DNA of 64,000 bases from Patescibacteria group bacterium (GTDB taxonomy: Bacteria > Acidobacteriota > Polarisedimenticolia > Gp22-AA2). The DNA is taken from contig DASRAN010000074.1 in NCBI GenBank assembly GCA_035638115.1, forward strand, positions 26,062-90,061, read 5' to 3'. Positions 53,208 through 59,087 of this stretch are shown piece by piece (the stretch's first letter is position 1; each line of letters starts with the position of its first letter). The notes under the pieces were generated by a model. The model saw only the letters and a list, made by a program, of their open reading frames with translations. It did no database searches and was not told the origin of the DNA. A program made the translations under genes and the position numbers.

Positions 53208-54436
53208 CGATCGAACCCTTCGCACTCCCGCGCGTCGTTCTCCTGTCCCTTTGCGCCCTCCTCCTGCCCTCGACCGCGCGCGGAGGCGATCGCCTCACCC
53301 TCCCTGTCCCGACCGAGAGCGAGCGGACCGAGCTGATTCGCCGATCCCGCGTGTGGGAGGCGACGGACGTCGCTTCGAAGGATCTCTACAACGGTCCCGC
53401 GGGCAAGCCGAGCTTCGCGGTGGATCAGGAGATTGCCTGCGATTTCGTCGCGAAGCCGATGGCCGGCTTCACCGAGAAATTCCTCTGCCGTCTGGACGAC
53501 GGATCGATCATGAAGGTCAAGTACGAGGAGGGGAATCAATACAAGGAGGAGTACGGCGAGGTCCTGGGGACGCGGCTCTTCTGGGCGCTCGGGTTCTACG
53601 CGGACCGGATGCTTCCGGTGCGCGTGAGCTGCCGCGGCTGTCCGAGACACCCCTGGGAATATGTCGATACGAGAAAGAACAAGGGTCCCCTGGACGAGCA
53701 AGGGCTCCTTCGCTCCCTCCCGCCCAAGGCGGACGTCGGAACCTATCTGTTTGCTCCCGCCGCGATGGAGGAGAAGATCGATGCCGAACCGATCGAAGAA
53801 AAGAAAGACCAGGGCTGGAGCTGGAAATCTCTCAAGTGGGTCGACGAGAGTCTCGGAGGGGCCACCCGGGCCGAGATCGACGCCCTGAAGCTGCTCAACG
53901 CCTTCGTCCAGAACGCCGACAACAAGGCCAAGCAGAACTCCCTCGTCTGTCCACGCGCCGACCTGGTGCGCGGCGAAGATGGGACCGTGACCTGCCGCCG
54001 TCCTATCATGTACGTCGACGACCTGGGGTCGGTCTTCGGGAAAGGCGGGTTCGTCACCGGGAATGACGGCCGGGTCGACTACGAGGGCTGGAAAAAAAGA
54101 TCCGTGTGGCGGAATCCGGAGTCCTGCAAGGCCCGCCTGGTTTCGATCGGGTGGATCCTCCGCCACTCCACCTTGAGGGATCCGGTGATCGGCGAAGAGG
54201 GGCGGGCCCTCCTGGCCAGGCAGCTGGCGCAACTCTCCGACGCGCAAATCCGGGACCTCTTCCGGGCGTCCCGGATCGAGCTCCTCCATCAGACGATGTC
54301 CGATGGCTCGTCCGGGAGGCGTGAGGTCACCCTGGAGGACTGGGTGCAGCTCTTCAAAGAGAAGCGCGACGAGATCACCAGACACCCCGGATGCCCGGAT
54401 CAGCGAGGCGAGCGGGTGGCGGTCGACAACCCTTGA
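53204..54436 (+). CDS. Sec-signal protein with a protein-kinase-like fold signature whose catalytic loop resembles HipA/CtkA (…LNAFVQNADNKAKQNSL…) plus a DLG metal-binding motif
   Basis: GTG 53204 overlaps the ppk2 stop (GTGA). Signal peptide VTIEPFALPRVVLLSLCALLLPSTA. Beta3-like Lys (IMKVKY), alphaC-like Glu (EEYGEVLG), catalytic-loop-like NADNKAKQN and DFG-like VDDLGSVFG. Motif-level inference only. Confidence 0.55.
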   Translation: MTIEPFALPRVVLLSLCALLLPSTARGGDRLTLPVPTESERTELIRRSRVWEATDVASKDLYNGPAGKPSFAVDQEIACDFVAKPMAGFTEKFLCRLDDGSIMKVKYEEGNQYKEEYGEVLGTRLFWALGFYADRMLPVRVSCRGCPRHPWEYVDTRKNKGPLDEQGLLRSLPPKADVGTYLFAPAAMEEKIDAEPIEEKKDQGWSWKSLKWVDESLGGATRAEIDALKLLNAFVQNADNKAKQNSLVCPRADLVRGEDGTVTCRRPIMYVDDLGSVFGKGGFVTGNDGRVDYEGWKKRSVWRNPESCKARLVSIGWILRHSTLRDPVIGEEGRALLARQLAQLSDAQIRDLFRASRIELLHQTMSDGSSGRREVTLEDWVQLFKEKRDEITRHPGCPDQRGERVAVDNP

Positions 54437-55752
54437 CGCCACGGTCATCGAAGGGTCCTCTGGACCGCGTTCTGGCGATCTTCACCGACGTACGCGCGGG
54501 CGAGGGCGTCACGGCGCTCCTGCTGATGCTGAATACGTTTCTCCTGCTTGCGGCCTATTACCTGCTCAAGACGATCCGCGAGCCGCTCGTCCTGAACGTC
54601 CGGGGCGGCGCCGAGGTGAAGAGCTACTCCTCCGCAGCCATCGCGGGGCTGCTCATCGTCCTCGTGCCGCTCTACAGCGCCGTGGCCTCGCGTGTGTCGC
54701 GCGTCCGGCTGATCAACGGCGTGACGCTGTTCTTCATCGCCTGCCTGATCGTGTTCTTCTCCTTGAGCGTGGCCGGCGTCGCGATCGGCGTGCCGTTCTT
54801 CATCTGGGTCGGGATCTTCAGCCTCATGATGGTCGCCCAGCTGTGGGCCTTCGCGGCCGACGTCTACACCGTCGACCAGGGCAAGCGGCTGTTCGCGATC
54901 GTGGGGTTCGGCGCATCGCTCGGCGCGATCGTCGGTTCGTTCGCGACCGGCCAGCTCGTCAAGCGCTTCGGTCCCTCCGCGTTCATGCTCGCGGCCGCGG
55001 CCCTGCTGGCCGTCTGCCTCCTGCTCACCAACATCATCAGCATGCGGGAGAAGAGCGCCCAGACGCCGAAGCCTCGCGACACTGCGCCGCAGCGCAGCGG
55101 ATTCGCGCTGGTGTTCACGAACCGCTACCTGCTCCTCATCGCGTTCCTCATGCTGGTGTACAACCTCGTGAACACCACCGGCGAGTACATCCTCGCCAAG
55201 ACGGTCGTGACCGCGTATGCGAGAGCGCACGGGGCCGCGGCCGTGGGCGGGCTCGACGAGGGCAAGGTGATCGGGGAGTTCTACGGAAACTACTTCACGA
55301 TCGTGAACGTCGCCTCGGCGTTCCTCCAGGCGTTTGTCGTCTCGCGCGTGCTCAAGTACTTCGGCGTCCGCGTCGCGCTCCTGGTGCTGCCGGCGGTGGC
55401 GCTCGTCGGCTACACGGGGATGGCGTTCATCCCACTGCTCCCGCTCATCCGGTCGGTGAAGCTGGCGGAGAACTCGATCGACTACTCGCTGCAGAGCACG
55501 ACCCGGAATGCGCTCTATCTGCCGACCAGCCGCGAAGAGAAGTACAAGGCGAAGCAGGCCAACGACGCCTTCTTCGTGCGCTTCGGGGACGTCCTCTCGG
55601 CGGGGCTCGTGTTCGCCGGAACCCGGTGGCTGAGCTTTGGTTCGCGGCAGTTCGCGCTCATCAACGTCGCGTTGATCGCCGGGTGGCTCATTCTCGCGAT
55701 CGTCATCGGTCGCCGGTTCGAGCGGCTCACCGAGGCCGCCGCGCCCTCCTAG
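54391..55752 (+). CDS. 12-TM transporter resembling the TLC (ATP/ADP translocase, Npt) family / MFS, paralogue 1
   Basis: N-terminal …LLAAYYLLKTIREPLVL… is similar to the TLC signature YxxLRxxKDxL; about 12 TM helices. Confidence 0.65.
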   Translation: MPGSARRAGGGRQPLTPRSSKGPLDRVLAIFTDVRAGEGVTALLLMLNTFLLLAAYYLLKTIREPLVLNVRGGAEVKSYSSAAIAGLLIVLVPLYSAVASRVSRVRLINGVTLFFIACLIVFFSLSVAGVAIGVPFFIWVGIFSLMMVAQLWAFAADVYTVDQGKRLFAIVGFGASLGAIVGSFATGQLVKRFGPSAFMLAAAALLAVCLLLTNIISMREKSAQTPKPRDTAPQRSGFALVFTNRYLLLIAFLMLVYNLVNTTGEYILAKTVVTAYARAHGAAAVGGLDEGKVIGEFYGNYFTIVNVASAFLQAFVVSRVLKYFGVRVALLVLPAVALVGYTGMAFIPLLPLIRSVKLAENSIDYSLQSTTRNALYLPTSREEKYKAKQANDAFFVRFGDVLSAGLVFAGTRWLSFGSRQFALINVALIAGWLILAIVIGRRFERLTEAAAPS

Positions 55753-58485: not shown

Positions 58486-59087
58486 CGCCCGTGGAGCGGG
58501 TCCTCATCCTCAAGAACGCCGACCTTCTCAAGGACGTGGGCCCGCGCCACCTGCTCGGCCTGGCGGACGTGGCACGCGAGATCGAGATCGCGAAGGGCGA
58601 GACGCTCTACGACGAGGACGACCCGGCCGACGCGCTTTACATGGTGGTCGAGGGCCGCGTGCGCCTGTCGTCGAAAGGCGACAGGACGACCTCAGAGGTC
58701 GGTCCGGGCGAGGCGTTCGGAACCTGGGCGCTCGTGGACGACTCCCGGCGCGGCCATCGCGCCGAGTGCATCGAGGAGGGCCTGGCGCTGGCGCTGCGGC
58801 GCGAGGATTTCTACGACCAGGCCGCCGGCGATCTGACGCTGCTCCAGGAGGTGGTGCGCGTGCTGGCCAAGCGCCTCCGCGCGATGGTGGCGGATCGGCC
58901 CGCGGAGGCGCGCGTCGAGGCCGAGGGCATCGAGAAGCCGCCCGAGGCGCCCACGGCACCCAACGCGCCCGCGCCCGCGGCGCCCACGGCGGGCTCCGCC
59001 CTGGAGGCCGCCGTGCTCGGGCAGACCGAAACTCAGGGGCCGCCCGGCGAGCCTGCGTCATCGAAGCCCGGGATCGAATCCGATTGA
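58479..59087 (+). CDS. Cyclic-nucleotide-binding (CAP-effector-type) domain protein
   Basis: GTG overlaps the upstream stop (GTGCTGA); cNMP-binding beta-roll motifs (…GETLYDEDDPADALYMVVEGRVRL…GEAFGTWAL…). Confidence 0.75.
   Translation: MLTPVERVLILKNADLLKDVGPRHLLGLADVAREIEIAKGETLYDEDDPADALYMVVEGRVRLSSKGDRTTSEVGPGEAFGTWALVDDSRRGHRAECIEEGLALALRREDFYDQAAGDLTLLQEVVRVLAKRLRAMVADRPAEARVEAEGIEKPPEAPTAPNAPAPAAPTAGSALEAAVLGQTETQGPPGEPASSKPGIESD

Follow-up and report, generated by a model that had tools for sequence, protein, structure and literature searches.

Non-canonical TLC-family carriers, one fused to a HEAT solenoid, are linked to a cyclic-nucleotide-binding-fold protein and a putative secreted kinase-like protein

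Fusions of a TLC/NTT carrier domain to a C-terminal HEAT domain (NTT-HEAT) were described as broadly conserved in free-living bacteria by Major, Embley and Williams (2017, Genome Biol Evol 9:480, PMC5381601). [quoted passage not shown] The distribution of NTT-HEAT proteins is wide, taking in cyanobacteria, Chlamydiae, oomycetes and many soil phyla. Here we analyze a locus within a stretch of 64,000 nt (contig DASRAN010000074.1 of assembly GCA_035638115.1, positions 26,062 to 90,061 of the forward strand; hereafter the window, G+C content ~70%). By its C-terminal HEAT fusion and adjacent cNBD gene the locus belongs to the published NTT-HEAT/cNBD gene group, and its core architecture has already been described. 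An earlier note, drawn from the sequence of the window alone, had reported tandem TLC-like carriers, the second fused to HEAT repeats and followed by a cyclic nucleotide (cNMP)-binding protein, and had suggested cyclic-nucleotide-gated nucleotide transport. That idea re-derives the observation and the speculation of PMC5381601; we confirm the observation and find partial support for the interpretation. With moderate confidence we propose that the two proteins are non-canonical TLC carriers, regulated through the HEAT solenoid and the cNMP-binding-fold (CNB) protein, that exchange a phosphorylated or nucleotide-type solute on behalf of an extracytoplasmic phosphoryl-transfer module.

Five genes are tightly packed on the + strand, and these genes and the two parts of the fusion protein are as follows.

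52341-53207, + strand: PPK2 (polyphosphate kinase 2; Pfam PPK2, 242.8 bits), first tightly coupled gene of the operon
53204-54436, + strand: unk410, putative kinase-like protein of 410 aa with a predicted Sec signal and no Pfam family
54433-55752, + strand: TLC1, stand-alone TLC/NTT-like carrier of the major facilitator superfamily (MFS) with 12 transmembrane (TM) helices (439 aa; Pfam TLC, 53.3 bits)
55759-58485, + strand: TLC2-HEAT, fusion protein of 908 aa (Pfam TLC, 28.2 bits; HEAT_2, 51 bits)
55759-57027, + strand: transmembrane domain of TLC2-HEAT, residues 1-~423 (Pfam TLC, AlphaFold2 and Foldseek)
57040-58485, + strand: HEAT (PBS-lyase-type) solenoid (residues ~428-896 of TLC2-HEAT), followed by a short tail with Cys as its last residue before the stop (HEAT_2, 51 bits)
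58479-59087, + strand: CNB, stand-alone cNMP-binding-fold protein of 202 aa (PF00027, 58.9 bits)

The PPK2 stop codon overlaps the GTG start of unk410 (GTGA), the unk410 stop overlaps the TTG at 54433 (TTGA), 6 nt separate TLC1 from TLC2-HEAT, and TLC2-HEAT overlaps the GTG start of CNB at 58479 by 7 nt (GTGCTGA). Public gene calls for identical proteins also start TLC1 at TTG 54433 (439 aa) and CNB at 58479; an alternative TLC1 start at ATG 54391 would give 453 aa. For a protein identical to TLC2-HEAT the public call is 880 aa, with its start 28 codons downstream of 55759. We favor the longer form from GTG 55759 because its N-terminal extension shows protein-level conservation in 908-aa homologues. 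Pfam bears out all three + strand genes of the earlier note, with three corrections: the public call for TLC1 starts at TTG 54433, with ATG 54391 as the alternative, the HEAT domain is present but measures ~480 aa (residues ~428-896) and not ~400 aa, and the cNMP gene is present but starts at GTG 58479, with its 7-nt overlap, and not at 58329.

TLC1 and TLC2 both exceed the gathering cutoff of the Pfam TLC model (PF03219, 21 bits), with matches that span only part of the 491-position model. The open reading frame (ORF) 54391-55752, which holds TLC1, matched it at 53.3 bits (E 2.6e-14) and matched MFS_1 too. The two carriers are 22% identical over 361 aa (E 6e-8), with a similarity of 42 bits to each other as against 28 and 15 bits to canonical NTTs, and they do share the N-terminal motif previously noticed, which reads YYLLKTIREPL in TLC1 and YTIAKVLRDTL in TLC2. 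Homologues of TLC1 are 70-94% identical. We searched family profiles built from metagenomic homologues of TLC1 (A2) and TLC2-HEAT (A1) against the PDB at E <= 0.01. The NTT ATP/ADP translocators 9j3n and 9j3j were the only PDB transporters matched by either profile at that threshold, 9j3n with E 3.1e-10 for TLC1 and 3.6e-8 for TLC2-HEAT, and 9j3j with E 0.0069 for TLC1.

The structural comparison (AlphaFold2 and Foldseek) covers TLC2-HEAT, and TLC1 is placed by profile. The TLC2-HEAT model has a mean pLDDT of 81, with values >90 across most of the HEAT part. Its top Foldseek matches in the PDB were AtNTT1 (9j3m and 9j3l) and Chlamydia pneumoniae NTT1 (CpNTT1, 9j3n) at E 2.5e-8 to 1.7e-7 and target TM-scores of 0.61-0.71, while other MFS proteins (NorA, VMAT and G6PT) appeared at E >= 1.5e-4, ~3 orders of magnitude behind. 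Both carriers are TLC family members in the broad sense, with NTTs as their nearest solved structures, and are not generic sugar or drug MFS transporters; the TLC relationship proposed by the earlier note survives the profile check that it had named, NTTs being the sole PDB transporters matched and the top structural hits.

Membership in this family raises the question of whether the carriers are ATP/ADP exchangers. As canonical references we used AtNTT1, CpNTT1, the PDB entries 9j3j, 9j3l, 9j3m and 9j3n, TCDB 2.A.12, and the NCBIfam NTP/NDP exchanger model TIGR00769. Against the 387.2-bit cutoff of the latter both carriers fail, TLC1 scoring 42.0 bits and TLC2 19.8 bits. In AtNTT1 the residues K155, E245, E385 and K527 are functionally important: K155 mutants no longer bind ADP, exchange stops in E245K (PMC3306366, PMC10654386), and in the K527E mutant ATP binding is gone (PMC3306366). 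We mapped these residues onto the carriers via HMMER alignments, and we regard the mapping as validated because one offset of 84 correctly lands K155, E245 and K527 on K71, E161 and K443 of the 9j3j chain.

The K527 position, where NTT RFGK/PLGK aligns with high confidence against RFGD in TLC1 and RWSD in TLC2, is a family-invariant Asp in each carrier (D386 of TLC1, codon 55588-55590; D370 of TLC2, codon 56866-56868). E245 aligns to Gly in both (FIWVGIF in TLC1, YLWTGAQ in TLC2), and that helix holds no acidic residue in either protein. In a region where the alignment is of low confidence, K155 falls opposite Ser/Ala in TLC1 and opposite Tyr64, an invariant residue, in TLC2; TLC1 has an invariant Lys (in EVK) four residues, or one helical turn, before this position. 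The CpNTT1 segment NLIEVTWK is matched by TTGEYIL in TLC1, where E251 is invariant, and by TLVDFQFK in TLC2, where D247 is invariant. We take this segment to be the E385 site of AtNTT1, using an AtNTT1 sequence that is consistently offset by one residue, and at this position both carriers are acidic, with Glu in TLC1 and Asp in TLC2. The derived states at the NTT sites are common to TLC1 and TLC2. ATP/ADP exchange is thus not supported by sequence, because both carriers fall short of TIGR00769, K527 is replaced by Asp and E245 is lost. The two proteins are best described, on these alignments, as putative non-canonical TLC carriers and not canonical ATP/ADP translocators.

The HEAT region of TLC2-HEAT comprises roughly 15 helical hairpins, and its profile matched alphaRep consensus HEAT designs down to E 2e-23 and the phycocyanobilin lyase CpcE. 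An alignment-based scan with one genome per species gave 63 loci, mostly in metagenome-assembled genomes (MAGs) of Candidatus Eisenbacteria, the closest (78-80% identity) being labelled Acidobacteriota or 'uncultured bacterium'. Near-identical clusters also carry the labels Patescibacteria, Omnitrophota, Verrucomicrobiia, Saccharimonadaceae and Bacteroidota (L007, L018, L032, L033 and L037); these odd labels look like binning or taxonomy errors and not real spread.

Fifty loci have a complete TLC2-HEAT gene and at least 650 nt of downstream sequence. The CNB gene is separate and directly downstream in 43 of these 50 loci, fused in 3 and absent in 4. The three in-frame fusions (L055, L056 and L058) each have a continuous reading frame and come from three separate MAGs, and in another fused carrier-HEAT-cNMP protein, P0088, the C-terminal part is 67% identical to the CNB protein. 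Such fusions, which the earlier note mentioned for other phyla, thus do exist, and the split/fused pattern is already in PMC5381601. The 7-nt overlap of TLC2-HEAT and CNB is retained in relatives of 60-75% identity, and very distant relatives (26-29% identity) still keep the link between carrier and CNB. In an actinomycetotal locus (L067) the CNB gene lies upstream of the carrier gene and overlaps it, and in an acidobacterial locus of 29% identity (L065, 851-6442) the order is Metallophos, NTT-HEAT, cNMP, a PTP-like (Y_phosphatase2/DSP-type) phosphatase and DUF5661, so that a phosphatase theme accompanies NTT-HEAT well outside the clade of the window.

The arrangement of TLC2-HEAT and CNB is far beyond chance. 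The junction predicts that CNB is translationally coupled to TLC2-HEAT, and adjacency or fusion in 46 of the 50 loci is strong comparative evidence that the CNB protein would work with the HEAT-bearing carrier; the functional link proposed by the earlier note is in this respect upheld. The CNB protein would most likely dock on the HEAT solenoid, because both are one polypeptide in some relatives. The N-termini and central loops of both carriers are rich in Arg and Lys, which by the positive-inside rule would place the HEAT domain and the CNB protein in the cytoplasm. A near-invariant Cys at the C-terminus of TLC2-HEAT, at first considered functional, need not be so, since it follows from the RTGCTGA overlap conserved at the start of CNB (Met-Leu-Thr; 58479-58485, L002-L004).

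The CNB protein passes the Pfam cNMP_binding cutoff (PF00027, 27.5 bits), lacks both a signal peptide and any further output domain, and carries after the CNB domain a conserved RPxEARVExEG motif followed by a Pro/Ala-rich tail. Its phosphate-binding cassette in the window reads FGTWALVDDSRRGHRAEC, and 50 non-redundant orthologues give the consensus F-G-[TS]-W-[AS]-L-[VI]-D-D-S-x-R-G-[HQ]-x-A-E-C. The cassette Gly (G81) is invariant among them. In CAP and PKA a cassette Glu makes the contact to the ribose 2'-OH; here that position is Thr in 47 of the 50, Ser in 3 and Glu in none. Epac has Gln at this position, and the Glu is thus not strictly essential. R91 is invariant and stands at G+10, as far from the Gly as in PKA; the MAFFT alignment puts the CAP Arg at position 94 instead, where Arg is found in only 35 of 50. 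We had entertained the view that the domain cannot bind a cNMP, on account of the poorly conserved Arg in the MAFFT column, and discarded it since the ungapped PKA-like register shows an invariant Arg. This domain may bind a cyclic nucleotide, though that is not certain, and may equally well bind some other nucleotide-like ligand. A known defence system was also considered and set aside, PADLOC giving only generic CNB-domain matches to Pycsar effectors.

The gene between PPK2 and TLC1 encodes unk410, which has no Pfam or NCBIfam match. Its homologues comprise >1000 metagenomic proteins, all named 'hypothetical' (1428 representatives at 50% clustering), and the family has eight invariant Cys residues and a hydrophobic signal-like N-terminus, read by eye, that ends in an AxA|GD-type site in the consensus. 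The AlphaFold2 model of unk410 (pLDDT 70, pTM 0.70) was compared with the PDB by Foldseek, and all matches at E <= 1e-3 were kinase-like: Helicobacter pylori CtkA, the Golgi casein kinase Fam20C, CotH, HipA/HipT and PI4K2A (PI4K-IIalpha). These matches lie at E 3.6e-5 to 1e-3 with TM-scores of only 0.3-0.5. Three invariant motifs, KVKY (53513-53524), QNADNKAKQN (53909-53938) and YVDDLG (54011-54028), fit a putative catalytic Lys, an Asp/Asn loop and a DxG motif as assigned by eye.

The Eisenbacteria counterpart, unk554 (554 aa), is a distant homologue of unk410 in profile-profile comparison (hhalign E 1e-4 across 255 columns, in which the same motifs line up); the single-sequence hhalign comparison of the two was insignificant (E 0.18). 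Within the kinase-like family, some proteins (P0390, P0439 and P0441) carry a fused PAP2 phosphatase and one, P0399, a fused subtilase. PAP2 active sites, as in PgpB/LpxE-type enzymes, face the periplasm. The model and the motifs suggest that the family (P0241-P0509 range) is a large, unclassified group of putative kinase-like proteins with signal peptides and many cysteines.

Convergent with the carrier operon, and downstream of CNB, lies a two-gene operon on the - strand with unk190 as its first gene.

60340-61302, - strand: metallophosphoesterase (Pfam Metallophos, 67.7 bits), convergent with the carrier operon
61286-61822 at least, - strand: unk190, conserved protein of ~180-190 aa without a Pfam match, overlapping the metallophosphoesterase gene by 17 nt

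The true start of unk190 is probably slightly upstream of the annotated one. Read by eye, the N-terminus of the metallophosphoesterase is Tat-like (TRRTF) and lipobox-like (IGSC). In related loci unk190 is always paired with the Metallophos gene. In the relatives L002 and L003 only ~7 nt separate the CNB and metallophosphoesterase genes, and L006, L070 and L075 show the same close convergent layout. In the window the space between the two stop codons is occupied by an insertion sequence (IS) element (59093-60333) with terminal inverted repeats of 21 nt (59093-59113 and 60313-60333, 95% complementary). The ORF of this element (59128-60234, - strand) has an IS1-family-like transposase match that falls below the cutoff (NF033558, E 7.5e-13) and an N-terminal zinc finger.

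The neighborhood is found again at about 60 Eisenbacteria/Acidobacteriota loci. Of 29 well-flanked loci, 21 contain TLC1, 24 a kinase-like gene, 22 Metallophos and 7 PPK2. In close relatives (L069, L071, L075, L077 and L102) PPK2 is directly upstream of the kinase-like gene. The usual four-gene unit in Eisenbacteria consists of an Omp85-like barrel, the kinase-like protein, Metallophos and TLC1, and stands beside or divergent from TLC2-HEAT-CNB. The statement of the earlier note that the modules are split across three genes holds as to the split, but the conserved unit is not simply three genes; it is larger and takes in the secreted kinase-like protein, PPK2 and the metallophosphoesterase. 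A reverse search from the kinase-like side gave 65 metagenome loci, in which Metallophos and unk190 are the most constant partners and TLC genes are common but not universal. The association of NTT-HEAT carriers with a secreted kinase-like family, metallophosphoesterases and PPK2 appears not to have been reported before.

On a 1.72-Mb Eisenbacteria contig (L004/L048; L004 882-17418) the cluster lies between PPK2 and genes for CYTH-CHAD, His_Phos_1, Ppx-GppA and PPK1, which amounts to a polyphosphate-metabolism island around the NTT-HEAT genes. Two TLC-less loci of the reverse search (L086, 7376-10351; L100, 9171-11262) hold, in the corresponding position, a PLD-like protein with two HKD motifs and weak PP_kinase_C similarity, together with an MsbA-type ABC exporter or a DUF4956/MgtC protein. 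Within the window, a Zn-dependent phospholipase C-like gene (50996-52318, + strand) ends 22 nt before PPK2 and may belong to the same transcription unit as the PPK2 operon. A very long ORF of 2885 aa (33994-42651, + strand; GC3 0.89) was also observed. A consensus scan of the sequence returned no sigma-70-type promoter matches, and terminator-like matches were no commoner than in shuffled sequence. Rfam and tRNA scans of the window were empty, and no riboswitch is evident because the Rfam scan returned nothing.

The reading that we favor, at moderate confidence as said above, has two divergent TLC-family MFS carriers, encoded back to back, residing in the inner membrane. The HEAT solenoid of TLC2 would dock the CNB protein, and the two together would form a cytoplasmic, ligand-responsive regulator, or gate, of transport whose ligand may be a nucleotide. 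The carriers would provide the membrane-crossing step of a module that also contains a kinase-like protein with a Sec signal, a Tat/lipoprotein-type metallophosphoesterase with its small partner, and cytoplasmic PPK2. Their job would be the regulated exchange, between cytoplasm and periplasm, of a solute that we infer to be phosphorylated or nucleotide-like. Two directional variants can be envisaged: scavenged phosphorus compounds might be imported, or a phosphate donor might be exported or exchanged to serve a periplasmic kinase. Several observations weigh against this reading. The substrate-site residues of canonical NTTs (K527, E245 and, on a low-confidence alignment, K155) are unconserved in both carriers, so that a nucleotide substrate would be extrapolated from the family to which they belong. 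Some copies of TLC2-HEAT occur by themselves (L042, L013 and L016). The trio of kinase-like protein, Metallophos and unk190 also occurs without TLC genes, accompanied instead by PLDc_2, an ABC exporter or DUF4956, and the carrier and kinase-like modules are therefore linked but not obligatorily. Our literature search, moreover, found no functional study of NTT-HEAT since the 2017 description.

Four more specific explanations can be set beside it. The one to which we give some, though small, credence is phosphorus or nucleotide scavenging, in which phosphoesterases would process external organophosphates or nucleotides, the TLC carriers would import the products (NMP/NDP or another phosphorus compound), and PPK2 with polyphosphate would rephosphorylate or store them. 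PPK2 in the operon, the phospholipase C gene 22 nt upstream, the Omp85-like outer-membrane barrel of the Eisenbacteria clusters, the polyphosphate genes adjoining the cluster in L004/L048 and L027, and the weak scores of the Metallophos neighbors against cyclic-nucleotide phosphodiesterase models all fit such a role. It leaves no part for a secreted kinase-like protein with intact-looking catalytic motifs, however; neither a Pho box nor pst genes turned up in the window, and sequence does not tell in which direction transport would run. A shade more doubtful is the opposite direction, in which a TLC exchanger would deliver a cytoplasmic donor (ATP, some other nucleotide, or a compound derived from polyphosphate and regenerated by PPK2) to the periplasm, retrieve the spent product and so power the Sec-exported kinase. 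The periplasmic metallophosphoesterase would then reverse the action of the kinase, and HEAT/CNB would throttle export in response to a cytoplasmic nucleotide signal. In favor of this proposal, it covers kinase-like protein, opposing phosphatase and PPK2 at once; against it stand the lost ATP-site lysine and those kinase-like loci that have no TLC genes. Our literature search returned no work on how ATP might be supplied to kinases in the periplasm, nor any on translocases of Eisenbacteria.

We regard as unlikely the conventional alternative, a canonical NTT that imports external ATP by ATP/ADP(+Pi) counter-exchange and is switched by cAMP or cGMP on the CNB protein. TLC membership, the ATP/ADP translocators as closest structural match, and a CNB domain that passes the Pfam cutoff and keeps its cassette Gly and an invariant Arg at PKA-like spacing agree with it, as does the same speculation in PMC5381601. 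These points are countered by TIGR00769 scores of 42 and 20 bits against a cutoff of 387, by the invariant Asp at the K527 position of both carriers (K527E costs AtNTT1 its ATP binding, PMC3306366), by the absence of E245, and by a cassette Glu that is replaced in all 50 orthologues (by Thr in 47, by Ser in 3); the hosts, moreover, are free-living soil lineages with large contigs and not energy parasites. On the same grounds of the failed exchanger model, K527, E245 and the cassette Glu, the cyclic-nucleotide-gated ATP/ADP transport envisaged by the earlier note is not supported in that form. Least probable to us is that TLC2-HEAT is a membrane sensor or scaffold (a 'transceptor') that uses HEAT/CNB to control either TLC1 or the periplasmic enzymes, with TLC1 as the sole transporter. 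TLC2 does score below TLC1 on the TLC model (28 vs 53 bits), has lost more NTT motif positions (e.g. the N of WxFAN and the P of YxP) and is, with its HEAT part, less conserved than TLC1, and many Eisenbacteria loci group TLC1 with the kinase-like and Metallophos genes and TLC2-HEAT with CNB in a divergent operon. The membrane domain of TLC2 nevertheless retains many invariant polar or charged positions (K44, R47, D48, D247, K251, R354/R355, K358, D362, R367 and D370), typical of a working MFS cavity, and NTT-HEAT genes often have no TLC1 nearby.

The locus leaves the identity of NTT-HEAT unchanged and supplies two concrete leads. As the ATP-site lysine is an invariant Asp in both paralogues, transport assays should not be limited to ATP/ADP. 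The genetic ties, in Eisenbacteria/Acidobacteriota-type genomes, to a kinase-like family, metallophosphoesterases and polyphosphate enzymes offer a testable context, either phosphoryl transfer outside the cytoplasm or phosphorus handling. Donor export is the more remarkable of the two directional variants; if true, it would parallel in bacteria the supply of ER/Golgi ATP to secretory kinases of the Fam20 type, and it would go against the textbook picture of a periplasm without nucleotide-driven phosphorylation.

Compared with the NTT-HEAT proteins of PMC5381601, the locus has the same TLC/NTT domain with a C-terminal HEAT domain (PF13646) and the same cNBD (PF00027) gene, adjacent here and fused in relatives. 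It differs in having a second, unfused TLC paralogue (TLC1) immediately upstream, in its module with a kinase-like protein, a metallophosphoesterase and PPK2, none of which that paper mentions, and in its lineage of Eisenbacteria- and Acidobacteriota-labelled MAGs. With canonical NTTs the carriers share the 12-TM MFS fold, NTTs being their best structural and profile matches, and several motifs: basic-x-x-basic-acidic in TM1, WxFAxD...KRLF, EFxGNF (in TLC1) and YxP...E.K.K.K.A.D....RFG. They depart from them by identities of ~15-18%, by Asp in place of K527, by loss of E245 and by a K155 out of register; canonical NTTs, moreover, have neither a HEAT domain nor a CNB partner, and the hosts here are not intracellular. 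Like the CNB sensors CAP/CRP, the PKA R-subunit, Epac and MlotiK1, the CNB protein has the PF00027 fold and the cassette Gly, and in an ungapped register an invariant Arg at PKA spacing. Unlike them, it has Thr or Ser in place of the cassette Glu in 50 of 50 orthologues and lacks a DNA-binding or catalytic output domain, its output being presumed to be the HEAT solenoid. The unk410 protein resembles the secretory and atypical kinases Fam20C, CotH, CtkA and HipA in its putative kinase-like fold by Foldseek and its putative Lys/Asp/Asn/DxG-type motifs, and the secretory ones also in its predicted signal peptide and conserved cysteines; it differs from all of them in that no sequence-family membership is detectable and the TM-scores are 0.3-0.5.

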